Shown: piece by piece, positions 21,565 through 64,000 of the stretch
Position numbering within the stretch: the first letter of the stretch is position 1
How the letters are laid out: the number at the start of each line of letters is the position of its first letter
Assembly: GCA_964498245.1 (NCBI GenBank)
Contig: CAZCGK010000009.1
Span: forward strand, 1,607 to 65,606
Source: an uncultured archaeon
GTDB taxonomy: Archaea > Aenigmatarchaeota > Aenigmatarchaeia > QMZP01
Direction: 5' to 3'
Length of the DNA stretch: 64,000 nucleotides
Program-made: the position numbers and the translations under genes
Notes under the pieces: generated by a model
Databases searched by the model: none
The model's input: the letters and a program-made list of their open reading frames with translations, nothing else
Told to the model about the DNA's origin: nothing

Positions 21565-24063
21565 ATGAATATTAGAAAGGTACTGGCAGGAGGTCTTGCT
21601 GCACTTACTGCCGGTGCAACTGTGGCATTCGGCGCATTTGCGCAGAGCACATCTCTTAAGGACTACGTTGTAGCCACACCTGAAGGTGTGCTTACATCCC
21701 CGATAATAGTGGTACCCAGCTACGAAGGAATAACACCTCCGGCAGGTCTTGCAAAGGATATTGTCGGAGCAGCAGACATCGCAGCAGCTGTTGCTGGCTA
21801 TGCAACACAGGAGGTTTCAGTCGGTACAGGAACAACAGTTTCCGTGAGCAACGGTGTTGACATTTCTACAGCAAACACAAAGATTTACTTGGGAGACAGC
21901 CTGACAAAGTCAGGTCTGAAAACAACCCTGACAAAGAATGATCTCCCAACACTTCTGGCATCCGGAACTGTAACAGATGACAGCGGAAACACATATCCAT
22001 ATGACCAGTACATAACACTGTCTGCAGGTACTGTAACAGCAGGAAAGAGCAATGGTGACCTTTCCGACCCTGCAATATACATAGATACAGGTTACAGCAC
22101 AACAACACCTCTTTACAAGATATCAATAGTATTTAACAAACTCCTGAACGCTTCAAGTACAGATGTGCAGGGTAACAGCATAGAGATTCTGGGACAGGCT
22201 TACTCAATAGGAGCAGGAAGCAGTGATACAAAGCTTGTTCTCTACTCCAGTGCAAACAAGCAGACAATAAGCCAGGGAGAAACCGTAACAGTCAACATTG
22301 ATGGTGTTGACCATGAAATCGGTCTGATAGGTACATCAAGCACAACCACAGCTGTTATAACAGTGGACGGTGAATCAAGGTCCGTAACAAAAGGAAACTC
22401 CTACACAATAGCAGGATTGAATGTATACATAGAGGATGTATTCTACTTCGGAGGAGGAGCAACAGCACCTCCGGGACAGGTCGTTCTCAGCGTCAGCACA
22501 GGTGCATCCAAGATAACACTTGAAAACGGCCAGCCTGTAAAGGTTGGAACACAGGATGATATTGTAGACGGAACTCTGGTATCGATAACATCAACATCAG
22601 GACAGGGTATTTCCAAGATAGAGATATCCGTAACAGCAAAGGACCAGAACGCTGATTACATACTTGAGGGAGAAGCATTTACAGACCCAGTTTTCGGAAG
22701 CTTCAAGATCGCCTTCGGCGGCATGAACATGGGAACAACTGACACAATAACAGTAGACAACTCAGGAACAACTGCAGCCTCTCTAAAGGTAACAGACTAC
22801 AGAGGAAATGAGAAGACAATCACCTGGGCTTACACATCTTCAAGCAACTTCAACCCAGCACTTAACGAAACAAGCACAAGGCAGTTCCATGTAGTCGAAG
22901 GTGAGGCGGTAAAGAAGGGTGATTATGTACTTCTTGCACCTTCACAGGGATCCGAATTCGGTCATATAATGCAGTACACATCCTCAGGCAGCCTCGGACA
23001 GAGCGGTGCATACATAGACCTGAAGGATGTATTTACCGGAACAACAACAAGAGTCTACCTCACGGAAGGTAACAACTGGGGAGGAACATTCTACATAGAC
23101 GGTCAGCAGTACTATGTGAACTCAAGTGGTAGCGGTTCCTCGGATATGGTATTCACATGGGGAACAACTGCAAGTAGAGGTAGTGCAGGAAATGAGACAA
23201 CCGTGTTCCCACTGATAAAGCTCAACGGTGGTGAGTGGTTCACATTGACAACAAAGGTAAGTCTTAGCGATGGTACATGGTATGAGCTGCCAACAGGAAC
23301 ATTCTATTACAATGCAACAACAGATGCAAACTCTATTAAGCCACTAGGAAGGGTTACATACAACATAACAAGCGGACAACTCGCACTGGCAAACCCATCT
23401 GACAACACACAGCTCCAGTATCCAGCAGTTCTCGTACTTGAAGAGAAAGCAAAGGATGCAAACAACAATGATGTGCAGGATGCAATAATTGTAACCATAG
23501 CTGACGGCAGTGGAAGTGGTGTGGATCTCACAATTCAGGCACCTCTGCTAACAGCTACAGGTGCAAGTACAGGATACACAAAGGAAAGTGACAACAGCGT
23601 GACTGTATACGCGGACAGAAGAGGAACAATGGTTGAACATGATACAGACAGCCAGGGACTTGTGACAATCACATATCCGGATGAGCAGGCAACTGCAAAT
23701 GTTGCTGTAGGTCCGGATCCACAGTTCTCTGTTGCAGGCGAGGCAGGAACAGTTGAGCAGGCAATCAAGATAACCACACCGGTTGCCAAGCTCGACAATG
23801 AAATAAACACAGCATCTCTGACAGGAGACCTCATCCTCATCGGAGGACCATGTGCTAACAAGCTGGTAGCACAGCTCGCTGAGGATGAGACCACAGGTAT
23901 TCCAGCATGCGATGCATGGGATCTCTCAAAGGGTCTCATCAAGGAAGTAACAAACGCATTTGGTTCAGGAAAGAAAGCTCTCGTCGTTGCCGGTACAACC
24001 GCTGACGACACAAGAGAGCTTGCAGCCAAGGTAATGCAGGGAGTACTGTCTTTTGAAGAATAA
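21565..24063 (+). CDS. secreted Thr/Ser-rich surface (S-layer-like) protein
   Basis: Signal peptide 'MNIRKVLAGGLAALTAGATVAFGAFAQ'. The 832-aa body has T/S/G-rich, low-charge composition, many N-x-T/S sequons, and an oligo-T terminator downstream. Confidence 0.6.
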   Translation: MNIRKVLAGGLAALTAGATVAFGAFAQSTSLKDYVVATPEGVLTSPIIVVPSYEGITPPAGLAKDIVGAADIAAAVAGYATQEVSVGTGTTVSVSNGVDISTANTKIYLGDSLTKSGLKTTLTKNDLPTLLASGTVTDDSGNTYPYDQYITLSAGTVTAGKSNGDLSDPAIYIDTGYSTTTPLYKISIVFNKLLNASSTDVQGNSIEILGQAYSIGAGSSDTKLVLYSSANKQTISQGETVTVNIDGVDHEIGLIGTSSTTTAVITVDGESRSVTKGNSYTIAGLNVYIEDVFYFGGGATAPPGQVVLSVSTGASKITLENGQPVKVGTQDDIVDGTLVSITSTSGQGISKIEISVTAKDQNADYILEGEAFTDPVFGSFKIAFGGMNMGTTDTITVDNSGTTAASLKVTDYRGNEKTITWAYTSSSNFNPALNETSTRQFHVVEGEAVKKGDYVLLAPSQGSEFGHIMQYTSSGSLGQSGAYIDLKDVFTGTTTRVYLTEGNNWGGTFYIDGQQYYVNSSGSGSSDMVFTWGTTASRGSAGNETTVFPLIKLNGGEWFTLTTKVSLSDGTWYELPTGTFYYNATTDANSIKPLGRVTYNITSGQLALANPSDNTQLQYPAVLVLEEKAKDANNNDVQDAIIVTIADGSGSGVDLTIQAPLLTATGASTGYTKESDNSVTVYADRRGTMVEHDTDSQGLVTITYPDEQATANVAVGPDPQFSVAGEAGTVEQAIKITTPVAKLDNEINTASLTGDLILIGGPCANKLVAQLAEDETTGIPACDAWDLSKGLIKEVTNAFGSGKKALVVAGTTADDTRELAAKVMQGVLSFEE

Positions 24064-50289: not shown

Positions 50290-50564
50290 GCAAAGAATTT
50301 AAAGAAAGCCCCCGGTGGGACTTGAACTAAAGTTCGGATCTCCTCTTTCAGCCTTTAAAAAATTATTCATAAATTATCACTTTCTTATCTTCTAATTCAA
50401 TATTAACTATATCCCCCTTTTTGATTTTGAGTTGTTTAATGATTTCTTCAGGAATACAAACATATAAGGAGTTTCCAGATTTCATCACTTTTCTTTTAAA
50501 AATTACACCCATATTAAATCTATACTGTGTATATGTTTATAAAACTTTCGGTCTATTTTATAAT

Positions 50565-51383
50565 ATGAATTACAACCAAAAAGTAAAGAAAGAATTCATA
50601 AAATATTTATACAGGAGAAATTTGTCAGAGGGGAGAATAAGGAAATATATGCTGGTTTTTGATGAGATTGAAAAGCTTAAAATAAACCTAAAAAGACTCA
50701 CCAAGAACGATATAGACAAATACTTTTTCTATTTGATGAAAAGTAAATATAAGGAATGGACGATAGTAACTAAATGGAAATGCTTTAAAAGAATTTGCAA
50801 ATTTGTCAAGAACATAGATCTAAGCGAATGGTATATAAAAACTCCAAACATAGAACCGGAGATACTTTCTCTTGATGAAATAAAAGCTATTATTGAAAAT
50901 CTTAGGAATTTCAGAGATAGATTAATCGTGATGTTGTTATATGAGAGTGGTATGCGCATAAGTGAATTGCTGAATTTAAAGAAAGGGGATGTTATATTCG
51001 ATTTCTACGGAGCATTGTTAAGAGTTCATGGAAAAACAGGTGTTAGATATATAAGAGTTGTAAAAATTGCTGAATTGCTTAGAATTTATATTAATTTATC
51101 TGCATCAGAAAGATTGTTTGAAATTACTGAACGTGCAGTTTTAAAAAATATAAAAAAGGCATGTGAAAAGGCTGGAATTAAAAAGCGTGTATATCCACAC
51201 TTATTCCGTCATACGAGAGCAACACATCTTGCGAAATATCTTACTGAGTCGGAACTAAAGGCTTATTTTGGTTGGTCGAAATATTCGAATATGCCTGCTA
51301 TATATGTACACTTATCAAGTAGGGACGTTGATGAAAAGATCATTAAAACAAGTCAGATTCATGATCTACAGTTAAAAATATAA
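50565..51383 (+). CDS. int: tyrosine recombinase/integrase
   Basis: Box I 'ESGMRISELLNLKKGDV' and box II 'HLFRHTRATHL...YVHLSSRDV' (catalytic Tyr) are present. Start trimmed to the ATG at 50565, downstream of an AT-rich promoter ('tttataaaac'). Confidence 0.8.
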   Translation: MNYNQKVKKEFIKYLYRRNLSEGRIRKYMLVFDEIEKLKINLKRLTKNDIDKYFFYLMKSKYKEWTIVTKWKCFKRICKFVKNIDLSEWYIKTPNIEPEILSLDEIKAIIENLRNFRDRLIVMLLYESGMRISELLNLKKGDVIFDFYGALLRVHGKTGVRYIRVVKIAELLRIYINLSASERLFEITERAVLKNIKKACEKAGIKKRVYPHLFRHTRATHLAKYLTESELKAYFGWSKYSNMPAIYVHLSSRDVDEKIIKTSQIHDLQLKI

Positions 51384-51574: not shown

Positions 51575-51726
51575 ATTTAACTGATAAAATTTCGCTTGTT
51601 GTAATATATGTTATGATTGTGCTCGCATTTTTATTCGGTGAACCGTATGGTGTGAGACAGTCTTATGTGATTACAATAGCTATAATCGTGACTATGAGTA
51701 TTATTTGGTATCTCACCAAAAAATAG
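51559..51726 (+). CDS. small membrane protein (55 aa), overlapping the RHH gene
   Basis: MVKEMNLTDKISLVVIYVMIVLAFLFGEPYGVRQSYVITIAIIVTMSIIWYLTKK has two hydrophobic helices. Confidence 0.3.
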   Translation: MVKEMNLTDKISLVVIYVMIVLAFLFGEPYGVRQSYVITIAIIVTMSIIWYLTKK

Positions 51727-52126
51727 TGATCAGGTAGGCTCCGAGAAGCAGAATGTATCCGGGAGTTTCCTCTCTTTCTTTTTTGATCAATTTTTTTGTT
51801 ATAAAAGATAGTATGAAAAGTCCTGTGAAAGCTATTAGAAACTTTATTATTTTGAAATGTTCTATCGCTCCGAAGCCGAGCAGGATCCAGACAAGAGCTT
51901 GTAAATCACCGGTGGCCATGAATTTTTTTGTTAAGAGTATTACAATAATAGTGAGAAAAATCAGTATGAAAACTAAAATTATATTTATTTTAAAGTACCC
52001 TAAAAGCATCATTGTTGCTCCAAACATGAAATAGTTGTATCGTTCATCTATTTCTCTCGTTCTGATGTCTCTGAAAGTGTTGTAAATGAGCATGAGTATA
52101 GAGAGAAAGTAATATATTGTGATCAT
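51713..52126 (-). CDS. element membrane protein
   Basis: 137 aa with four transmembrane helices. Confidence 0.4.
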   Translation of the reverse strand: MITIYYFLSILMLIYNTFRDIRTREIDERYNYFMFGATMMLLGYFKINIILVFILIFLTIIVILLTKKFMATGDLQALVWILLGFGAIEHFKIIKFLIAFTGLFILSFITKKLIKKEREETPGYILLLGAYLITIFW

Positions 52127-52569
52127 TCTGTCAACCCTTTCAAAATCTCTCTTGATTTAACTATAAGCTCGCTCATTATTGCTTCTACAAAGATTTCGTT
52201 AATCTTGATAACAAAATTTTCAACATCTTCAACAAGCGGAACAAAAGAATCTGATTTGTCTTTTGGAATTATTTTTTCATAGTATTTCTTTATCTCTTTC
52301 TTATAAGTTTTGAATTCTTTTATTTGTTTTGTAAGTGCGTTGAATCGTACATAAACTTTAAATATGATTGATCTAAGTTGATTTATTGTTTCCATCAAAC
52401 TTTTCTTCTCCGAATCTTCTATATCATATTTTTGCAAACTTTCTTCTGTGTATTTGTTTTTGAGATGAACATAAAGATTTATGTAAGATGAAGCGTAAGC
52501 TATGAGAAACTCTATATCTGAAAGGAATGTAAGCAAGTAACTTGCTCCTGCGACTTTTTCTTCTTGCAT
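52123..52569 (-). CDS. element hypothetical protein
   Basis: 148 aa, helical and charged. Overlaps its neighbours by 4 nt in the translationally coupled array. Confidence 0.4.
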   Translation of the reverse strand: MQEEKVAGASYLLTFLSDIEFLIAYASSYINLYVHLKNKYTEESLQKYDIEDSEKKSLMETINQLRSIIFKVYVRFNALTKQIKEFKTYKKEIKKYYEKIIPKDKSDSFVPLVEDVENFVIKINEIFVEAIMSELIVKSREILKGLTE

Positions 52570-52572
52570 ACT

Positions 52573-53394
52573 TCACCTCGTCTGCACAGCTGTTTTAACA
52601 GTTTCTTGCGTTGCCGAAATTGCAGGTCTAAGTGTTTCTGATATGATTGGTAAAAATGTCATAGCGAGTAATACGAAAACAACTATTAATACAAGCCAGA
52701 ACCACCACGAGGATAAGAATCCAAATGGTTTTTTCGGTTTTGTCATTTCTACGACATGTCGTGCGAAGTCTCTCATTATGCTTGTGAGTTCTTCTGTTTT
52801 CTTTTTCAAATATAAAACAAGATGTTTTATCATAGCATCTTCTTCAAGTTTAGCGAGAGCATCTTTAGTTAAGAATGCATCCATGCTTTTATTATAGATC
52901 AGAACCGGAAAATGTTCGAAAGCGAATGTTATTTTATTAGTATCTTCTTTTTTGTATCTAAGTATGTAATAATCATAATCTTCACTGAATTTTTCTTTAA
53001 GTTTTTCTTTGGCTTCTTCTTTACTGAGTTTTGTTATTGTCGCTTCTTTTGGTTTTTTCATATAAAAAACACTTTTTCTGTCAAATAGTGATGTCGTTTT
53101 GTATTTATCTGAATCAATAAAGGGTAGTCTTACTTTTGCTATGAATGGTTCAATGAGGCCAGAACTATCGAATGTGAATGCGAGAAGTCCTTCTCCTTCG
53201 AGAAACTGTAGTACCGGATGTCTCACTATCATATTAAATAAAAATATTGAAAGAACCATTGTGATTAACCATGCAACTATAGCGAATATCAGACCGTATC
53301 CGAACAGAATAAACATAAAAAACATAAGCGTAGGCATAAATCCAACTAAGAACAGTGCAGCCCATTTCTTTATTTTAAACATATTAAGTTTCAT
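52573..53394 (-). CDS. element membrane protein
   Basis: 273 aa with an N-terminal two-helix transmembrane region and a C-terminal transmembrane segment. Confidence 0.45.
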   Translation of the reverse strand: MKLNMFKIKKWAALFLVGFMPTLMFFMFILFGYGLIFAIVAWLITMVLSIFLFNMIVRHPVLQFLEGEGLLAFTFDSSGLIEPFIAKVRLPFIDSDKYKTTSLFDRKSVFYMKKPKEATITKLSKEEAKEKLKEKFSEDYDYYILRYKKEDTNKITFAFEHFPVLIYNKSMDAFLTKDALAKLEEDAMIKHLVLYLKKKTEELTSIMRDFARHVVEMTKPKKPFGFLSSWWFWLVLIVVFVLLAMTFLPIISETLRPAISATQETVKTAVQTR

Positions 53395-53395
53395 G

Positions 53396-53941
53396 CTATC
53401 TCCTCAAGCTAATAAATGTTTTTTGTTCGGGCGGTTTCTCCAGAGAGGGAACGAGGGTATATGGATAGTCGTATTGATATTCGAATCTTGATTTTGAAAG
53501 ACTATCAAAAGCAAATGCTTCAAGGCCAAGCGTGCTGCGTGAAAGAAATAGAAAGACGTCAACACTAAACTTCACGTCGTGCAACATCATCTTTTTGATC
53601 TGGTCGAGTATTTCTTTTATCTCTTGTTTGTATTTTTTGAAATTGAATTTTTCGAGTTGTTGTTCATAATCATAGAGAAACTCTGCTAATTTTGTGAGAT
53701 CACGAACCCATGTGAAGTATTTTCCAAGCAAATAGCGATCATACTCTTGCAAATTTGTGAGCTTGAGTTCAATATTTGTGAGCATATAAAGAAGTTCTAA
53801 GAGTTCTTCACGTGTGAGATCATCTTTTTTGATAAGTTCTCGGAGCCTTTCGGCTTCTCTCCTACCGAGAAGCTTGTCTATAAAAGTCTTCTCTGTTTGT
53901 TGAGCATGTAACTTTTGTGATAGAAGTTTCTCAAATTGCAT
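53396..53941 (-). CDS. element hypothetical protein
   Basis: 181 aa, helical. Confidence 0.4.
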   Translation of the reverse strand: MQFEKLLSQKLHAQQTEKTFIDKLLGRREAERLRELIKKDDLTREELLELLYMLTNIELKLTNLQEYDRYLLGKYFTWVRDLTKLAEFLYDYEQQLEKFNFKKYKQEIKEILDQIKKMMLHDVKFSVDVFLFLSRSTLGLEAFAFDSLSKSRFEYQYDYPYTLVPSLEKPPEQKTFISLRR

Positions 53942-54959: not shown

Positions 54960-55056
54960 GTATGGATAACTAAAAATAAAAAATAAAGAAAAAACTAAGA
55001 AAATGCTATGTTGGGTGCTGTTGTTTCTGTGCTGCTAAGTGCTTTACAGAGCACTT
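54960..55056 (-). terminator. hairpin plus oligo-T terminator after the capsid-like gene
   Basis: On the minus strand, the hairpin 'aagtgctctgtaaagcactt' is followed by 'ttttttctttattttttattttt'. Confidence 0.45.
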
Positions 55057-55388
55057 CCGTAGTAGCCGTAGCTTGTTGATCTTCCAAGTCCCATGATAAG
55101 CCCAAGAACCACGAAGATTATCACTGCCAAAACAACAATCGGTAGATAGTTACCTGTGGTCTTCAGGGCTTTGAACCCAGAAGTTATGCTGTCCTTGACA
55201 TATGTCTGTATTGTTGTATCGTTTATTGCATTTATGTCTGTCTCGACCTGACTGTATACCTGTCCACCGAGTGTGCCGACGAAAATCAAAACGAGTGTCG
55301 CCACACCGACGCCCATGATCAAAAGTATTACTGCACCGGTTTGCTCCTGAACTGCTCCTCTCTTTTTATAAACAAGTTTTGTGTTCAT
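55044..55388 (-). CDS. small two-helix hydrophobic protein; candidate major capsid protein of a spindle-shaped virus
   Basis: The 114-aa protein has two hydrophobic segments (VILLIMGVGVATLVLIFVGTL; LPIVVLAVIIFVVLGLIMGL). It is followed by a strong hairpin plus oligo-T terminator. Confidence 0.4.
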   Translation of the reverse strand: MNTKLVYKKRGAVQEQTGAVILLIMGVGVATLVLIFVGTLGGQVYSQVETDINAINDTTIQTYVKDSITSGFKALKTTGNYLPIVVLAVIIFVVLGLIMGLGRSTSYGYYGSAL

Positions 55389-55436: not shown

Positions 55437-55766
55437 TTATATTTTTACTTTTTTATATTTTTTGAATGGATGTTTTGAGAGATGTAGCATGATTTCTATT
55501 ATTGTGAATATCACAACAAGAGAGAATAAGAATGTGTTTATGTTATGCAGAAATGCAAACATTCTGATTATATTTTTCGCTGAATCTAAAGAGAATGATA
55601 GAGTTGCGAGCGTTATGAGAAACGAGAAGAATGAGAGAATCAAAGTTATGAAAGATGCTTTTATGTCAAATGTTTTCACGAAGCTCATTAGATTGTAGAG
55701 CTTAGATAGAAATATACATAAATTGATTGTGAAAAACATCAGTCCGAGTAATTCTATTATATTCAC
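55437..55766 (-). CDS. element membrane protein
   Basis: 109 aa with three transmembrane helices. Confidence 0.35.
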   Translation of the reverse strand: MNIIELLGLMFFTINLCIFLSKLYNLMSFVKTFDIKASFITLILSFFSFLITLATLSFSLDSAKNIIRMFAFLHNINTFLFSLVVIFTIIEIMLHLSKHPFKKYKKVKI

Positions 55767-56044
55767 ACTATCACCGACTGTGTTTTCTTGTAGCTTATGA
55801 GTAACGATATAGTTAGTATGACGAATGATGCAAGTATCATTATAATGTGATACATCGTGTTGAATCCAAGAGCATAAAATATCATAAATTCGATTGACGT
55901 CATGAAGAATAGCAAAAGTAAACCTAATCTAAATTCTTTTGCCATGAAAATTATACTTGAGAGAACTGTAACTATAAGTATGAACACTTCATTTGTTACT
56001 CCGAGATTACTCGTCAATTCTGTGAGTATTTCGAACATACTCAT
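55763..56044 (-). CDS. element membrane protein
   Basis: 93 aa with three transmembrane helices. Overlaps its neighbour by 4 nt. Confidence 0.35.
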   Translation of the reverse strand: MSMFEILTELTSNLGVTNEVFILIVTVLSSIIFMAKEFRLGLLLLFFMTSIEFMIFYALGFNTMYHIIMILASFVILTISLLISYKKTQSVIV

Positions 56045-56493
56045 ACTATCGAACCTCTACTTCTTATATTCAGTATGAAAGCCAACAAATTCATGAAGTA
56101 AAGTATTGATATAGCACTAAACACGAATAACTTGAGCTGTGCTGATAAAAAAGCATCAAGATTGAAAAACATCAAAAAGAAATTTGTGAGTATACTAAAC
56201 ATGCTCGGAATTGCGAAGAAGAAGTTAAGCATGAGATCTATAATGATATTACCGGAATAGAATACCAAGGCACCCAAATCAATAAGTGGAATGTTCATCT
56301 GTTGTTGTGTTGTTGATTCTATCTGAGATGTTATATCTGTTATATCTGTTGTAATATTCTGCATCTCTGTGAAGTAGATGTTGTTTACATTGTAAAGAGA
56401 GAAAGCATGAGTTAGCGTTGTAACTCCGAAACTGTAGAATAATTGAATTATTATGATCCATACGAAATATTTGTATGCTGACATTTTCACCAC
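56041..56493 (-). CDS. element membrane protein
   Basis: 150 aa with multiple transmembrane helices. Confidence 0.35.
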   Translation of the reverse strand: MVKMSAYKYFVWIIIIQLFYSFGVTTLTHAFSLYNVNNIYFTEMQNITTDITDITSQIESTTQQQMNIPLIDLGALVFYSGNIIIDLMLNFFFAIPSMFSILTNFFLMFFNLDAFLSAQLKLFVFSAISILYFMNLLAFILNIRSRGSIV

Positions 56494-56531: not shown

Positions 56532-59387
56532 TTATGTTATTTTCGAATATTCTTCTTTATAGACGAGTAATACGAATATGAGCATAATGATGATTATTGT
56601 TTGTATAAACACGATTTGTGTCGTCGCTGGTGCAAGTGTTGTTATTGCTAAAGCGATTATTAAAGTGATTATACCGAAAAAACCAAAGATGTGTCTTACA
56701 GCTACGAATGTTAAACCGAAAAATATTAGAGTTGCTGATATAAATATTGCGAGCCATGTGTCTATAAGTCCGATCGCTCCGGACAATGTGAATATTCTCA
56801 CTATTTCTGATTGAGATGTCTGCGTGTATTTCTTTACTACAAGCTTTAGTATGTTGTTCTGAATACTTATGCTTGAGTAATCGAAGTAAATCGTAAATTC
56901 GTTTGGTGTTTCTGTTTCAGTATGAGAAAATAGAACTGTGTCCCCGTCATAGATATAGATTTCTGTTTTTGTATTCTCATTTTCTAAGTTTTTATAGTAA
57001 ATTTTCAGTGTTGTATTAGATATTTTGCTTACGCTTATATCGTCAGTTGTAAGTGTGAAGGTGTAAGTCTTTTTTGTTGATTCTAAAACGTCGAGATTAA
57101 CTGATGTTGCTACTGATCCGTCAAGCGTTGCTAAAAATACTTTCTGATCGTTTTCGTAAGTGTAGAGATAATAGAGAGCTTTGATTGTATATGCCTTTGC
57201 CATGAGTGCATCTTGATATGCGTATTTTGTATAATCTGCGAGGACATAGCACTGAGCGAGATTGTTTTTAACTGCTATCGGTTTGTTTGTGCTGGAGTAA
57301 AAAACTATTTCATAGAATTGTTGTGTCTTTGCTACACACGCTCTTGTTGTTGTATCTATTAATTCGAGATTTAAATCAATATATAGTAAGCTGTTAGGAT
57401 CAGTATTATAACGTTTTTCTATGCGAATTACATCACTTTGATTTGAAATAAAGAGTATAGATGTGTCATTGTTTTCTAAGAAGTTGAAAATCTCTTGTGT
57501 TTTCTCACTAATTGCTCTGAGTGTGTTCATATCTGAGAATGAATTGAAAACACTACCGTCATCTTCGTTGATCAGAGTTATATTTTTCTTGTAGATGTAT
57601 ATCTTGTTGCTGCTTGAATCTTGATTGTTTACAATATCGTGACATGTTACACTAAACGAGTTCGTTCCGTCACTGAGTGTGAAGCTATAAACCGTATAAT
57701 TATTTGCGAATAAATATGAATATTTATTTGTATTTATTGTTATATTACATTCTTGCACTGGACTCACTGAATCGCTTACAGAGATATTTATGTATTCAGT
57801 TGCGTTATTGCGAAAACCGTAATTGAAATTATAAGAAATAATTATTTGTGGTGGATTGATATCGCTTATATATGTAAAGTTTTTGCTTTCTATAATGTCG
57901 GGATCTTTAAACAAAAATACAATGGCTGTTAATTCTGTGTCTATGTTATTTGTGTAAATGGTGCTGAATTGATAAGTTATATTGTTGCATTGTATTATTG
58001 TTTCGTTGTAATATTGTGTATTTGCATAATCATCTATTCTTACAATAACACTGATTGAGTTATTTAATAATCCACACCGTGCTGAATAATTTATGTTTAT
58101 TGTATGTGCATAATTTATATTGTTATAAGTTGTGTAATTTGAGAATGTAACAATAAGTGTATATAAATCTGTTGTAAAGAAAACTGTTTCAGATGATGTT
58201 TTACTTTCGCTATCTGTTGCATATATTGTTAAATTGTTGAGTGTTTCACTCTCTACTGTTATGTTCATTTCTATTGTTGTGTCATTGTAATAACTGTTAT
58301 TTTCGTATATTTTTTGCCCATTGAGATATATTGTAACATTTAAGGTTGTTGAATTATCATCTGAAACTATGAAGTTTAGAAAAATATTGCTTGTATAGTA
58401 AGTTGTATTTGACGGTGAGTAAATTATTATCGATGGTGGATTGGTTTCTGCTGTTTCCTCCGCTCCAAAACTGTATGTCGGTTCTGGGTCGTGGTATTTT
58501 CTTATAAAAAACCAATCTGTATATGATATACAATCATATGATGGTCTATATCGAATCATATCTCCTATGTTTTCTCCAGACACTGTTTGCTCGAAAACAA
58601 AATCTCCATTATCGAGGTCTGCGATGAGATATGTCGTGTTCGGAGTTATTGCTGTATATTCGTGAAACTCCGTTGTATCGAATACATATGTTGATGAATA
58701 ATAATAATTATTTGTTCCTCCGTATCTGTCGCTAATTCTTATATAATCGTTTATTCCATCAAACATTATTTGATCATGATTATCTATATCTTCGTATCTT
58801 ACATCAACTTGTGTTTGTGCATTTGTTGATGTGTTAACTTTCCAATGCACCGCAATTGAGTCAGTTGTTGTATATGATACTGAAAGGACTCCCCAAGATG
58901 TTGTATCCGTTCTTTGTAAATACCCATCTGCCTCTGTATATGTGCCTGACTCTACAGTCCATTTGCTTGTATTGAAATCTTCATCATCGAAATCATCTGC
59001 AAACAAAAAAGTTGAATCTATATCACTTTCATTCGCCGCTCCCGAATTCCCGTAATACATGCAGATTGTGCTGTTTATCGTGGGAACTTTAACCCAAACT
59101 TCAGCATACTGCCCGTCAACTTTGTTTTCAATCCAGTAGGGAATTTCGTAAGCATCGTCTGAACAGTTGTTCGTGAATCTCAAATCGTCGAAATCAGATT
59201 GCATTCCAGACTCGTATGTAACATTAAGCAAAACCTGATAATCTGTCAAGCTTGAGCCATCAGGAACGGTTATTTCTATCTGCTTCCTGTACTGCCAATC
59301 GGTATTCCACCAAACAGCGTATGCAGAGTTTATAGTAAGAAGTAAGAAAATCATCAAACTTAACGTTATTATCGTTTTTCGTATCAT
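56532..59387 (-). CDS. large secreted and membrane-anchored protein with an N-terminal DUF2341-like (concanavalin/LamG-like) domain; putative virion adhesin
   Basis: Signal peptide 'MIRKTIITLSLMIFLLLTINSAYA', then 'VWWNTDWQYRKQIEIT...DLRF...YWIE...VWVKVP...YYGN', the DUF2341 hallmark. The body is N/T/S/Y-rich and ends in a C-terminal cluster of three or four transmembrane helices. 951 aa. Confidence 0.6.
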   Translation of the reverse strand: MIRKTIITLSLMIFLLLTINSAYAVWWNTDWQYRKQIEITVPDGSSLTDYQVLLNVTYESGMQSDFDDLRFTNNCSDDAYEIPYWIENKVDGQYAEVWVKVPTINSTICMYYGNSGAANESDIDSTFLFADDFDDEDFNTSKWTVESGTYTEADGYLQRTDTTSWGVLSVSYTTTDSIAVHWKVNTSTNAQTQVDVRYEDIDNHDQIMFDGINDYIRISDRYGGTNNYYYSSTYVFDTTEFHEYTAITPNTTYLIADLDNGDFVFEQTVSGENIGDMIRYRPSYDCISYTDWFFIRKYHDPEPTYSFGAEETAETNPPSIIIYSPSNTTYYTSNIFLNFIVSDDNSTTLNVTIYLNGQKIYENNSYYNDTTIEMNITVESETLNNLTIYATDSESKTSSETVFFTTDLYTLIVTFSNYTTYNNINYAHTININYSARCGLLNNSISVIVRIDDYANTQYYNETIIQCNNITYQFSTIYTNNIDTELTAIVFLFKDPDIIESKNFTYISDINPPQIIISYNFNYGFRNNATEYINISVSDSVSPVQECNITINTNKYSYLFANNYTVYSFTLSDGTNSFSVTCHDIVNNQDSSSNKIYIYKKNITLINEDDGSVFNSFSDMNTLRAISEKTQEIFNFLENNDTSILFISNQSDVIRIEKRYNTDPNSLLYIDLNLELIDTTTRACVAKTQQFYEIVFYSSTNKPIAVKNNLAQCYVLADYTKYAYQDALMAKAYTIKALYYLYTYENDQKVFLATLDGSVATSVNLDVLESTKKTYTFTLTTDDISVSKISNTTLKIYYKNLENENTKTEIYIYDGDTVLFSHTETETPNEFTIYFDYSSISIQNNILKLVVKKYTQTSQSEIVRIFTLSGAIGLIDTWLAIFISATLIFFGLTFVAVRHIFGFFGIITLIIALAITTLAPATTQIVFIQTIIIIMLIFVLLVYKEEYSKIT

Positions 59388-59556: not shown

Positions 59557-59760
59557 TCATGTGCTTATATTCGAGTTTTTCAACGCTTCTGATGTCTTTT
59601 CACACTGTTTTCCATTTATTTTCATATAGATCGGTGCTATTTCGAGTTTGTAATAATCGTAAAAATCTACTTCCTTACCACATCTCATGCAAACATAATC
59701 TATTCCGTTCATGTCTTTCGGAATAAAAACATGTTTGCATTTTCTTTGCATAACTATCAC
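59557..59760 (-). CDS. small zinc-finger protein
   Basis: 67 aa with 'CKHVFIPKDMNGIDYVCMRCGKEV'. Confidence 0.35.
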   Translation of the reverse strand: MIVMQRKCKHVFIPKDMNGIDYVCMRCGKEVDFYDYYKLEIAPIYMKINGKQCEKTSEALKNSNIST

Positions 59761-60104
59761 CTTATTTCGCTTTCAACTATTGTTCTTGTTCGCATGAACA
59801 AAATAAACAAAATTATGATTAGTATGATTAACCATGAATATTGATAAAAAAATGAAAGTGCTGATATTTGTTGAGATGTGCTCGTTCTTGCAGCTTCTAT
59901 ACTTTCGTTTGCTACAGCAGGTAAAGTGCTTGTATTTATTGAATTAAGAATATCGTTGCCTGCTGAATAAAATTGTGTATTAAATTCTATTAAGATTGGA
60001 ACTGCGAAACCGAACAGAAAGAGAAGAAGAACACTCATGATAATAAAAACTAACCACATTCCTACTACTCCTTTTCTGTTTCTTATTTTTTGTTTCATAT
60101 TCAC
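59757..60104 (-). CDS. element membrane protein
   Basis: 115 aa with an N-terminal transmembrane segment and an internal transmembrane helix. Confidence 0.35.
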
Positions 60105-61375
60105 ATCATCAAATCTTGCATAACTTTACGCATTTTTTGCAATTCATTGTAATAGATAAGTCTACCTTTTTTGAAAACACCTTTCATTTCACCTGGTAGT
60201 TTTCCGGGAATAAGAGGTAATGGTGGTGGGACTCTTACTTGTGGTGTTGGTGTAGGAGTTGGAGTGGGTGTTACTGTTGGTGTAGGAGTTGGAGTATCTG
60301 TTGGTGTAGGAGTGGGTTCTGGTGTAGGTTCAGGAGTAGGTGTAGGAGTTGGACTCGGTTCTGGTGTTGGAGAAGGTGTTGGTGTAGGGGTGGGTGTTAC
60401 TGTTGGTGTAGGAGTTGGAGTGGGTGTAGGGGTTGGCATAGGTGTAGGAGTTGGACTCGGTTCTGGTGTTGGAGAAGGTGTTGGAGTAACTGTTTTTATT
60501 CTTATTCTCTTTTTTCCTTTTGTTTGTGTTGGTGTTTGCGTTGTGGTAGATGTGGGAGTTGGTGTTATAGTTGGAGTTATGATTGGAACTGTCGGTTCTT
60601 TTACAAATTTATGTCCTAAAACATCACCAATTTTTTCATATGGATCTATAAGTGACTGTCCTATCCAATCTACCGCTTTTGCTCCTTTCATTTTGTTTAT
60701 ATACATTTTTGATAAACCATAACCACCTATCCCAGCACTTATTGTACCCAATCCAGCACTAATTAAAATTGTTCCTGGTTCAACTTTACCTTCTCGTGCA
60801 AGAGATGATACTATTGATGTTACAGTGCCTTCATAAAGACCACCAACTGCAGACGCTTTTAATACTTGTTTTGGTATTTGTTTTTTAGCTACATTTAATG
60901 CAATTTTACCACCACTTTTTGCTGTTAATTTAGTTATACCTTTTGTTGCGATTTTTGCACCAAGTGCTTCTGATGCACCAGAAGGTATTGCTACACCTAT
61001 TGCTTCTCCTATTCCCCCAGCGAGTTCAAGTGTTGATACGGCTGATGCAATTTTCTTAGCTTGTGTTTTATCTACACCACGCTGTATAAGTTTTTGTTCA
61101 GTCTTTTTTGCAACCTCTTCTCTATAAAATAGCTGTGATCCTGGAATATCGAAAGCTGTTATTTCTTTACCGCCATCGGGAAGAATATCGATACCGGGAG
61201 ATGATTCTCTTACTTCCGCTTTTGCTTCTTGTATCGTTTGTTGTATTGTTGTGTTTGTTTCTATTTGCTGTTTCACATCTGCTTCTATTTGTGTTTTCGC
61301 TATTTCTTTTGCTATGATTGGTGCTAATATGCTCGCTGCTGTTGCAATTGCCAATCCAACAAGGAATCCCACCAT
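60101..61375 (-). CDS. membrane-anchored protein with a long Pro/Thr-repeat linker (fibre/tape-measure-like)
   Basis: N-terminal transmembrane segment '[20 protein letters not shown]', a Gly/Ala-rich helical region, then about 110 aa of ([12 protein letters not shown])n repeats, followed by a basic C-terminus. Confidence 0.55.
60236..60495. repeat. DNA-level tandem repeats encoding the Pro/Thr linker
   Basis: 'ggtgttggtgtaggagttggagtgggtgt' units are reiterated. A roughly 38-nt block 'ggagttggactcggttctggtgttggagaaggtgttgg' occurs twice (about 60349 and about 60452). Confidence 0.7.
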
Positions 61376-61955: not shown

Positions 61956-62366
61956 TTATGAAATGGCACTTTCCTCTTTTTCTGATTCAGCATTTTTTGT
62001 TTTTCTAAAGACAATTGAAATATTTATCTTTCTTGTTCTCGAGTCGAGTAGTTCTGCGACTTTTTTTATTTCTTTAAGTAACTGATCCGTCTTATCTGCA
62101 TGCTTATTCTTTATTTTCTTTCTAAAGTCGACGAAGTCAAAATTAAATTTTTGTCCGAGTAAAGCTTCTGCTATACGTAGCATTTGAAGATAAGAGTTAA
62201 AGCGATCTTCTGATGACTGATTCGGATTTGAATAACTCATAAGTCCTGCTTTGATGTGTTGATAGAACAAATGTATTATAGGGTCTTTAGCGAAATCTAT
62301 AATTTCTTGATATTCTCCGAGTTGTTTTTCAATTATTTCTTCATTAGATTTTGTTTTCTTTTTCAT
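61956..62366 (-). CDS. element hypothetical protein
   Basis: 136 aa, helical and charged. Overlaps the downstream ATPase gene by 4 nt. Confidence 0.35.
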   Translation of the reverse strand: MKKKTKSNEEIIEKQLGEYQEIIDFAKDPIIHLFYQHIKAGLMSYSNPNQSSEDRFNSYLQMLRIAEALLGQKFNFDFVDFRKKIKNKHADKTDQLLKEIKKVAELLDSRTRKINISIVFRKTKNAESEKEESAIS

Positions 62367-63337
62367 ATCAACCCTCTTCTTTTGACTTCTTCTATGAATC
62401 TTGGTAAAAATTCTTTTTTGAATTCTGATTTCGATAAATCGAACATTTTCATTATTATCTGTGCATTCTGTGTCGTAAAGTAAACACCACGACGCTTTGA
62501 GAACGAAGCGAGATTCTTCACCATTTCAAAGATTTCATCAACTTGCAGTTCTTGTGTGAAATCTCTGATCTCTCCGAGTTCACGCTTTATCTCCCGGAGA
62601 ATTATCTCACGCTTTCTCTTGAGTATTTTTGATTTAGTTTCTATACTATGTTTAATAAACTCTTGTTTTACTTCTGTGCTTGGCATAGTTATTATCGATG
62701 TTGAAATCTTGAAAGTATAATCTCCGAAAGGAAGTTCTAATCTTTTTAAACGCAGTATTGGCTTTTCAACGTTGCTTCTGTCATTCCAGAATGTGTAGAT
62801 ATGCATTTGCACCTGATGCTTACGTTCAAGAATTATATCATAGTGGATTGTTTTTCTTACATCTTTTACTATATCTCCGAGATCTTGTGAATTGTAAATG
62901 AGAATTCCACCATAACCACAGTTTTCAACTTTAATCGCTCGTAGTGTTGCGTTTGCTTCCGCAATGGATTGAGAGAGTAATGTATACCATCTGTGAGCTG
63001 AAACAAGTTGTCTTAACTCCTCTATAACGAGAGTTATGTATTTACTCTTTGTCCATAGATCTACTTTTTTTGAATACTCAGCTGGTGTGTAAATAACTTG
63101 TTTGATAACATTGTAGTTTATAGCGATATTCATTATACGAGAGAATAAATTTTCAAGACGTTGTGCAAGAGAAAGACATGTCATACTTTTACCTTCTCCA
63201 CTTTTACCTTCAACAAATACAATAATTATACGATCATTAAAAATAGGTTCGATGAATGCTTTATAGAGAATGAGATCTTCAAGAGTTTCTATCGCATCAA
63301 AAACCCTTTTATCTTTTATTTCGATTTTTATTTCCAT
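62363..63337 (-). CDS. P-loop ATPase (viral or plasmid type)
   Basis: Walker A 'VEGKSGEGKSMT' and Walker B-like 'ITLVIEE' are present. 324 aa. Confidence 0.55.
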   Translation of the reverse strand: MEIKIEIKDKRVFDAIETLEDLILYKAFIEPIFNDRIIIVFVEGKSGEGKSMTCLSLAQRLENLFSRIMNIAINYNVIKQVIYTPAEYSKKVDLWTKSKYITLVIEELRQLVSAHRWYTLLSQSIAEANATLRAIKVENCGYGGILIYNSQDLGDIVKDVRKTIHYDIILERKHQVQMHIYTFWNDRSNVEKPILRLKRLELPFGDYTFKISTSIITMPSTEVKQEFIKHSIETKSKILKRKREIILREIKRELGEIRDFTQELQVDEIFEMVKNLASFSKRRGVYFTTQNAQIIMKMFDLSKSEFKKEFLPRFIEEVKRRGLI

Positions 63338-63491: not shown

Positions 63492-64000
63492 CTAACTCAT
63501 TACTTTCTTAAGGTATTTAGCAACTTCGAGAGCATATCTACGAGATCCGTGAACATAGAATGTCGAAGATCCAGCGATGGCTTTCGGCAACAAAGGTTTA
63601 CCGAAGTAAAAGTTTATGTATTTTTCTTCAAGTCCTAAATCAAAGAGAATAGATGCTATGTTGTGCCTGAAGAAGTAAAATGTGTATGGGTAGAATTTGC
63701 CTTTTACGGTTTCTCCGATATTGTATTCTATATTCAGACGCAAAAATTTATCTCGTGGGTTTCGATACTTCGCTATATGTGTAAACAAATACTCCTTTGG
63801 AAAAATCTTTTTCTTGAAAAATTCTGCGAGAAATTCGGTTTGTTCATTGCAGATAGGGAGCATTATAAGCCGTTCAAAACCGCCTTTTATCGTCTGTATC
63901 TTCATTCTTATATATTCTTTCTCTATTTCTATTCTTTCCCGGACTATCAAACATATTTCGGCAGGCCTTGCTCCTACAAGATATTGCGTTATGAGCAAAG
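63492..64000 (-). CDS. tyrosine-recombinase catalytic domain (second integrase), N-terminus beyond the window
   Basis: Box I-like 'LVGARPAEICLI', box II-like 'FFRHNIASILFDLG', and '...TFYVHGSRRYA' with a candidate catalytic Tyr. The frame is open to the window edge; the ORF-track start is a TTG. Confidence 0.45.
   Translation of the reverse strand, partial: LLITQYLVGARPAEICLIVRERIEIEKEYIRMKIQTIKGGFERLIMLPICNEQTEFLAEFFKKKIFPKEYLFTHIAKYRNPRDKFLRLNIEYNIGETVKGKFYPYTFYFFRHNIASILFDLGLEEKYINFYFGKPLLPKAIAGSSTFYVHGSRRYALEVAKYLKKVMS

Follow-up and report, generated by a model that had tools for sequence, protein, structure and literature searches.

The window analysed here, a 64,000-nucleotide (nt) stretch of archaeal DNA (contig CAZCGK010000009.1), carries near its right end a mobile genetic element that encodes p951, a protein of 951 amino acids (aa). 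We favour, with moderate confidence, the reading that p951 is a VP4-like host-attachment fibre of a temperate spindle-virus-like element residing in an Aenigmatarchaeota chromosome, a reading built on analogy with known spindle viruses. What carries it is directly observed: the anatomy of p951, the pattern of conservation in its family, the context of the element and the homology of the element’s ATPase. For a viral rather than a plasmid-like element, analogy and this one ATPase homology are the grounds. An earlier note on this DNA had proposed a viral receptor-binding or terminal-fibre protein, and that interpretation is partly supported.

The gene of p951 lies on the minus strand, which corrects the entry in the earlier note, and its open reading frame (ORF) divides as follows (pLDDT, predicted local distance difference test score; AF2, AlphaFold2):

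56532..59387, minus strand: p951, putative adsorption or terminal-fibre protein, 951 aa plus stop (ORF list)
59316..59387, minus strand: residues 1-24, Sec-type signal peptide, cleavage predicted between AYA and V (hydropathy and sequence)
58953..59315, minus strand: residues 25-145, DUF2341 core of the head (Pfam E=2.1e-18; pLDDT ~90 in model 1)
58443..58952, minus strand: residues 146-315, hypervariable distal head (21-26% identity with indels; low or mixed pLDDT)
56787..58442, minus strand: residues 316-867, stalk of ~7 beta-sandwich domains, like those of immunoglobulins (Ig), macroglobulins (MG) or fibronectin type III (FN3) (AF2 model 2)
56535..56786, minus strand: residues 868-951, three conserved hydrophobic helices, the family-defining anchor (hydropathy, AF2, family)

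The N-terminus (MIRKTIITLSLMIFLLLTINSAYA followed by VWWN) is a hydrophobic stretch with an A-x-A site at its end, in keeping with the signal peptide recognised previously. The DUF2341 head recognised at the same time also proved sound: the Pfam profile PF10102 matches residues 65-145 at 67 bits, against a gathering cutoff of 23.4, with positions 1-83 of its 84 covered, and p951 has the WWN..W.YRK, DLRF, YWIE, VWVKVP and YYGN motifs, which vary little from homolog to homolog. The likeness to LamG that had been read into the same domain was not established by sequence, as p951 has no Laminin_G match in Pfam at E<=1, and its head profile scores at most 1.8% by hhalign against the Laminin_G_3 heads of other family members. 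A conserved RKY..PEPTY..G.EE linker closes the distal head.

Beyond the head, the sole Pfam match is a weak bacterial Ig domain (Big_7). The composition of p951 (T 12.2%, N 8.9%, S 8.6%, Y 8.1%) and the beta-sandwich domains of the AF2 models bear out the N/T/S/Y-rich, beta-type body described earlier. Model 1, built from 45 sequences, resolved the head (pLDDT ~90 at residues 30-170, with confident beta structure also at 240-310), and model 2, built from 100 sequences with body homologs included, placed residues ~410-945 at pLDDT 90-98 as a chain of beta-sandwiches followed by three helices. The last of these sandwiches (792-867) directly adjoins the anchor, which carries an FG[WYF]FG turn and a YKEEYSKIT tail. 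Hydropathy and both models agree on C-terminal helices at 877-893, 903-917 and 923-944 (pLDDT ~95), which settles the ‘three or four’ transmembrane helices counted before at three. N-x-S/T sequons number 28, versus 17.4 +/- 3.6 in shuffled sequence. In structural searches with Foldseek, the only matches of p951 were generic multi-sandwich proteins.

The conservation pattern of the family sets the two ends of the protein apart. A word-indexed search with p951 returned only two full-length relatives, P0002 and P0003 (the latter from a metagenome-assembled genome (MAG) of Aenigmatarchaeota); P0001, identical to p951, occurs on four public contigs. All other matches of that search covered the DUF2341 head alone, in genomes of DPANN archaea, the Candidate Phyla Radiation (CPR), Thermoplasmatota and others. 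An exhaustive HMMER search, queried with residues 316-951 of three homologs, matched 716 cluster representatives, 451 of them at E<=1e-30. The match reached the C-terminus of the target in every case, while N-terminal length varied, giving proteins of 303-1472 aa. Three hydrophobic helices lie within the last 100 residues in 147 of 157 family proteins, a signal-peptide-like N-terminal hydrophobic segment was found in 133 of the 147 members that begin with Met, and the median sequon density in the ectodomains of the 157 is 4.3 per 100 aa. Not all heads are alike: among 53 members scanned, DUF2341 was present in 10, Laminin_G_3 in 6 and GLUG in 1, and most had no Pfam match.

The same contrast holds at close range. 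In the DUF2341 core p951 and P0002 are 58% identical, but over residues 146-295 the figure is 26%, in the proximal stalk ~40% and over residues 601-865 ~90%, and the genes flanking the two are 70-93% identical; among the three full-length homologs the core is 51-58% identical and the distal head 21-26%. Since the tail is conserved while the head diverges, we regard the family as a conserved tail joined to a fast-evolving, exchangeable head, as would be expected of a receptor-binding protein. A diversity-generating retroelement as the source of head variability was set aside, as no reverse transcriptase was recognised among the element’s ORFs.

The p951 head (residues 25-320) is up to 57% identical to cellular DUF2341 proteins. 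These proteins, from DPANN archaea, CPR bacteria and methanogens, share a homologous head, yet lack the family’s body and three-helix anchor. The earlier note had held that a cellular pseudopilin or S-layer paralog, present in relatives free of the provirus, would count against a viral role; the head domain alone does occur in cellular proteins, but the full-length family was found only with the element module and never outside it in the loci examined. Full-length-alignment scans of genome and viral contigs returned only cellular head homologs because their patterns derived from the head: at 56 genome loci no match extended past about residue 400 of p951, the scan patterns having fallen in the DUF2341 head, and the patterns of alignment A3 found nothing in IMG/VR. 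Of note, the DUF2341 domain also opens a 1,134-aa protein that ends the tail gene block of a tailed virus of Methanomicrobiales (BK063669, L077; 6974-10378). It is 41% identical to the p951 head, so that in tailed viruses of archaea, too, DUF2341 apparently acts as the head of a fibre.

The architecture of p951 is that of fusellovirus VP4. VP4 of SSV1 (Sulfolobus spindle-shaped virus 1), the C792 ‘end-filament protein’, likewise has a signal peptide and three C-terminal hydrophobic helices, and the large ectodomain of fusellovirus VP4 is glycosylated and directed at carbohydrates. The VP4 C-terminus of SSV19 is a beta-sandwich followed by a Z-shaped three-helix bundle; the tail-capsid ring consists of seven of these bundles and a further seven contributed by the adaptor B210, and each VP1 strand begins by stacking on a VP4 bundle (PMC9351363). 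SSV19 VP4 is also N-glycosylated at NXT sites and binds and degrades host glycans (PMC9351363; PMC12042106). The terminal order of p951, known from sequence and model, is the same (sandwich 792-867, helices 877-944), and p951 combines the signal peptide, sequon-rich ectodomain and sandwich-plus-three-helix terminus that mark the VP4-type architecture. The two differ in their distal parts and hosts: fusellovirus VP4 has a GH76-like alpha/alpha6 endo-mannanase core and serves viruses of Sulfolobales, whereas p951 presents a DUF2341 beta-domain on an Ig-like rod and belongs to a DPANN archaeon. ORF27 of the halspivirus His1 follows the same plan of signal peptide and C-terminal helices, as do ORF676 and ORF678 of Pyrococcus abyssi virus 1 (PAV1), which have a signal peptide, a concanavalin A-like lectin annotation and 2-3 C-terminal helices.

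The context of p951 is that of an integrated element in an archaeal chromosome. Among the genes in the left 50 kb of the window are those of RNase P p30, PCMT, glutamyl-tRNA synthetase (GluRS), histidyl-tRNA synthetase (HisRS) and an S_layer_C protein, and all named relatives among the best 120 GluRS matches are Candidatus Aenigmatarchaeota, the group to which the host belongs. In view of these relatives, the label ‘MAG: Spirochaetes bacterium’, under which the contig’s PCMT protein was deposited (RKY00708.1), looks like a binning error. The S_layer_C-domain protein (832 aa, 21565-24063, plus strand) lies in a locally GC-rich stretch (0.46) and is a candidate glycosylated surface target of lectin-type fibres.

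From about 50.3 kb GC content drops from ~39% to ~32%. This drop, an integrase beside a putative tRNA 3' remnant and a circular relative uphold the earlier placement of p951 inside a mobile element. The ends of the element carry the following features:

50309..50330, minus strand: putative tRNA 3'-end remnant (GTTCAAGTCCCACCGGGGGCT), inferred left attachment (att) site, read from the sequence
50421..51383, plus strand: tyrosine integrase int320, left element end (Pfam Phage_integrase E=8e-21)
63492..64000 and past the window end to ~64118, minus strand: second small tyrosine recombinase, 208 aa, family-conserved (38% identity to the L070 integrase)

The tRNA 3'-like stretch beside the integrase measures 21 nt, and a separately assembled contig terminates near it, at 50305. 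ARAGORN and Rfam found no intact tRNA, and a comparison of 50.1-50.6 kb with 63.9-64.9 kb (sequence to 64879) turned up no att direct repeat; the right end of the element is accordingly either undefined or outside the sequence at hand. The element thus holds two different tyrosine recombinases, a full-length one at the left and a smaller one conserved across the family. A 49-aa MazE/AbrB-type protein (50363-50512, minus strand) adjoins the integrase, and since the same layout recurs in the related contig L005, it is probably element-borne.

We compared the element with loci L001-L005 and L066-L073, which include three close and five distant relatives as well as two IMG/VR contigs. Every locus examined held the same module, of roughly 14-20 kb, in the order p424, p115, the large protein, p150, p93, (p109), p114, two small opposite-strand genes and p181, followed by p273, p148, the A24-like protein and the integrase. 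One relative, L070, is a 17,960-nt contig whose 141-nt terminal overlap, in an assembly at k=141, identifies it as a circular replicon of ~17.8 kb; it encodes MCM helicase and Dam methylase besides an ATPase and an integrase. In the window copy, no replication gene was seen within the available sequence. The module genes around p951 are these:

62363..63337, minus strand: p324, P-loop ATPase related to His1 ORF16, AAA+/DnaA-like (hhalign)
60101..61375, minus strand: p424, membrane-anchored, linker (~120 aa) rich in Thr and Pro, upstream of p115 in every case
59757..60104, minus strand: p115, paralog of p114 (alignment A9; hhalign A5 versus A9 69%, E=4e-5, in register)
56041..56493, minus strand: p150, multi-helix membrane protein, in every case directly downstream of the large protein (identity 34-93% across all the related loci)
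55763..56044, minus strand: p93, small three-helix membrane protein, module gene
55437..55766, minus strand: p109, small membrane protein, module gene
55044..55388, minus strand: p114, candidate major capsid protein, best-conserved small module protein (47-87% identity)
52123..53941, minus strand: p148, p273 and p181, conserved module proteins (synteny, 24-88% identity across loci)
51713..52126, minus strand: A24-like (GxGD) aspartyl peptidase, 137 aa, membrane protein (PF01478 E=3e-4)

The ATPase supplies the one sequence homology to a spindle virus. The p324 family aligned with His1 ORF16 at an hhalign probability of 91.5% (E=8.8e-7) over 163 columns, with Walker A and B in register, an ATPase of the B251/His1 ORF16 type being a mark of spindle-virus elements. 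Against SSV1 B251 the probability was 15%, and with PAV1 ORF375 only the Walker A loop aligns. The p324 homolog in L070 showed a faint Zot match, and sequence searches found no solved-structure relative of p324.

The rest of the module resembles those of His1 and PAV1 in layout. His1 (Halspiviridae) likewise combines its ATPase with a two-helix capsid protein, small multi-transmembrane (multi-TM) proteins and large anchored proteins with a signal peptide (ORF26/27); it differs in being linear, with a protein-primed polymerase and no integrase, and its structural proteins are not detectably related to those of the element. In PAV1, a multi-TM protein of ~140 aa comes after each of ORF676 and ORF678, just as p150 comes after p951, and the neighbourhood also holds ORF121, a capsid protein with two helices, and a P-loop NTPase; PAV1 has two large proteins and the window element one. 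For PAV1 and the element no pair of proteins showed homology (hmmsearch <0 bits, phmmer, hhalign <=0.7% for ORF676/678), the comparison with ORF676/678 that the earlier note had proposed included. The Laminin_G_3 heads of the p951 family, but not the DUF2341 head, are weakly linked to PAV1 ORF678 (hhalign 46%).

Candidates for the capsid are p114 and p115, each with two hydrophobic helices, joined by linkers of 32 and 41 aa, respectively. These linkers compare with 14 aa in SSV1 VP1, 32 in VP3, 15 in His1 VP21 and 22 in PAV1 ORF121, and an L-x-P opens helix 2 in p114, p115 and all four of these proteins. p114 runs from a Y-x-K-x-G motif through helix 1 (16-44) and the 32-aa linker, with an N-D-T sequon, to helix 2 (77-104), which starts from YLP. 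Its N-terminus, YKKRG followed by AVQEQTGAVILL, has an invariant Y..G motif and resembles the SSV1 VP1 precursor at TKG followed by EATNIGVLL, where mature VP1 begins. The N-terminus of p115 is class III-like (prepilin-type), with basic residues, K-[G/A] and a hydrophobic helix directly after.

Next to these lies the putative A24-like peptidase, which from its sequence is a possible maturase of p114 and p115. Its A24 match (21.6 bits) is below the cutoff of 26.5, and three of six homologs match the profile; the two motifs with a candidate catalytic Asp, RD and GD, are retained in all six of these homologs, which come from related elements. A miniature GxGD protease encoded by a virus or plasmid would be unusual. 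A type IV pilus system was rejected, as neither a PilB/FlaI-type ATPase nor a platform protein is encoded by the element. Also rejected, on hhalign values of at most 4%, was the idea that the three-helix module of p951 recurs in p150 or p93 in the way that the VP4 module recurs in B210.

Two further observations concern the other large proteins of the module. In p424, an N-terminal hydrophobic segment precedes the low-complexity linker, and the independent assembly SRR7051320 breaks inside the linker repeat. Several related elements encode extra large secreted proteins after p93/p109 (L071 7665-10118, L067 8638-10452, L068 8765-12032); these have signal peptides, one has Laminin_G_3, and none has the three-helix anchor. 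As they also show no similarity to the p951 body, they were rejected as anchored paralogs comparable to PAV1 ORF676/678.

Several results weigh against an assignment of p951 to the spindle-virus fibres. By hhalign, the body and anchor of p951 scored 1.3% and 1.0% against SSV1 C792, and p114 and p115 at most 1.6% against the profiles of VP1, VP21 and ORF121, all of them short hydrophobic proteins. Neither p951, its anchor, p114 nor p115 had a significant match to structural proteins of SSV1, His1 or PAV1, and element proteins had no useful match in PHROGs. Foldseek did not place SSV19 VP4 among the top 50 matches in the PDB, and its three top BFVD matches (A0A5Q2W8G7, A0A5P9U552, A0A5Q2W896) could not be named. 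The module was found on only two IMG/VR contigs. Lastly, ATPases of the His1 ORF16 type also occur in pleolipoviruses and plasmids, so the p324 match alone is no proof of a spindle virus. The viral fibre build proposed by the earlier note is thus matched in architecture by SSV1 VP4, His1 ORF27 and PAV1 ORF676/678, with no hallmark capsid match beside it; the receptor-binding role accords with a hypervariable, swappable head on a conserved tail, while the viral nature of the element leans on the analogy and single homology given above.

The best-surviving alternative, though in our view a rather improbable one, is that the element is a non-viral integrative plasmid (pT26-2-like, or a ‘plasmid vesicle’ of the pR1SE type) and p951 an adhesin of its DNA-transfer or vesicle apparatus that would attach the donor cell or vesicle to a recipient cell. 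In general layout like the window element, members of the pT26-2 family (17-38 kb, integrated or free) have a conserved block, mostly of membrane proteins, with an ATPase, variable and swappable replication and integration modules, and tRNA integration (PMC6972569). A plasmid would also suit the failure of PHROGs and profile comparisons to detect a capsid hallmark, the near absence of the family from IMG/VR, and the window copy’s want of a replication gene in the available sequence, whereas L070 has MCM. However, the authors who described the pT26-2 family report it to be without homologs outside Thermococcales and Methanococcales (PMC6972569), and tblastn of p951 against PLSDB (72,556 plasmids, pT26-2-type included) returned a single DUF2341 match, on a bacterial plasmid. 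The pT26-2 ATPase is HerA/VirB4-like, unlike the His1 ORF16-like p324, and the pair of two-helix proteins together with the sandwich/three-helix terminus suit known parts of spindle virions. Tblastn of p951, p114 and p324 against phage and plasmid collections gave matches to the DUF2341 head only, or none.

It is less probable still, and to us clearly unlikely, that p951 is the envelope spike of a pleolipovirus-like pleomorphic virus, with its helices in a lipid envelope and its ectodomain attaching to cells and possibly fusing membranes. A genome of ~14-20 kb would fit, as would the many small membrane proteins beside an AAA+ ATPase, since in pleolipovirus modules, too, an AAA+ ATPase goes together with a spike and a membrane protein of the matrix, and such a spike would carry a signal peptide and a C-terminal anchor. 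Pleolipovirus spikes are, however, smaller and have a single C-terminal helix; PHROGs and Pfam gave no match of the VP3/VP4 type of Halorubrum pleomorphic virus 1 (HRPV1), and a conserved three-helix bundle right after a sandwich better fits fusellovirus VP4/B210. The idea that p951 is cargo of lysogenic conversion, a host cell-surface adhesin (for a partner archaeon, for example) present in no particle, could draw on the many DUF2341 heads in large DPANN and CPR surface proteins and on the DUF2341 protein in a type IV pilus locus of Methanococcus maripaludis that is required for transformation (PMC10133366), but is very unlikely because body and anchor form a core gene at a fixed position in every element examined, while the family co-varies with the module, no cellular context was found, and cargo genes are usually variable and peripheral.

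If p951 is indeed a VP4-like fibre, its route to the particle may be sketched as follows. The Sec signal peptide would take the N-terminus across the membrane, where the three C-terminal helices, a topology deduced from sequence, would hold the protein, and its ectodomain, with its excess of sequons, would be heavily N-glycosylated. By analogy with SSV19, the last sandwich and the three-helix bundle would join a ring at one pole of the virion. There p114 and p115 would stack on the p951 bundle and start the lattice, as VP1 does on SSV19 VP4. The A24-like peptidase may cleave the two at their K-x-G N-termini. The ~7-domain stalk would push the DUF2341 head outward, to bind a glycan or glycoprotein of the target-cell surface, with the hypervariable distal head, whose variability is plain in the alignments, probably setting host range.

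As a kind of protein, terminal fibres of spindle viruses whose head is directed at carbohydrates are already known. What is new is the family of body and three-helix anchor: no source gives it a name, and past the head it is without a match in Pfam, PHROGs or the PDB; searches of PHROGs, NCBIfam and PDB sequences with p951 and its neighbours yielded nothing useful. Also new are the large size of this family, its association with Aenigmatarchaeota and its cassette-like head exchange, and the module’s own A24-like peptidase adjoining proteins with prepilin-type N-termini.

A broader and doubtful proposition, which we offer tentatively, is that these elements make up a family of spindle-type viruses, large and as yet unrecognised, whose hosts are Aenigmatarchaeota and further archaea of sediments, with three distinctive traits: a cassette fibre, prepilin-type capsid signals and an A24 maturase of their own. 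In such a family, lectin heads would be exchanged with cellular DPANN and CPR surface proteins while the stalk and the capsid-seeding anchor stay constant. If true, the maturation of spindle-virus capsids would be tied to the processing of type IV pilins in archaea.

Very few viruses of DPANN archaea are known, and the spindle-type ones proposed, on criteria similar to ours, are limited to nanohaloarchaea (bioRxiv 10.1101/2025.02.15.638363). If our reading of p951 holds, the more than 700 sequence clusters would mark widespread, uncatalogued small temperate elements in sediment and hydrothermal archaea, and the body with its three-helix anchor would serve as a marker for locating them. The design of a constant anchor with a swappable head would offer a handle on host range and on the surface glycans recognised, and the conserved anchor of p951 a model, open to testing, for the junction between a fibre and a capsid built of hydrophobic helices.

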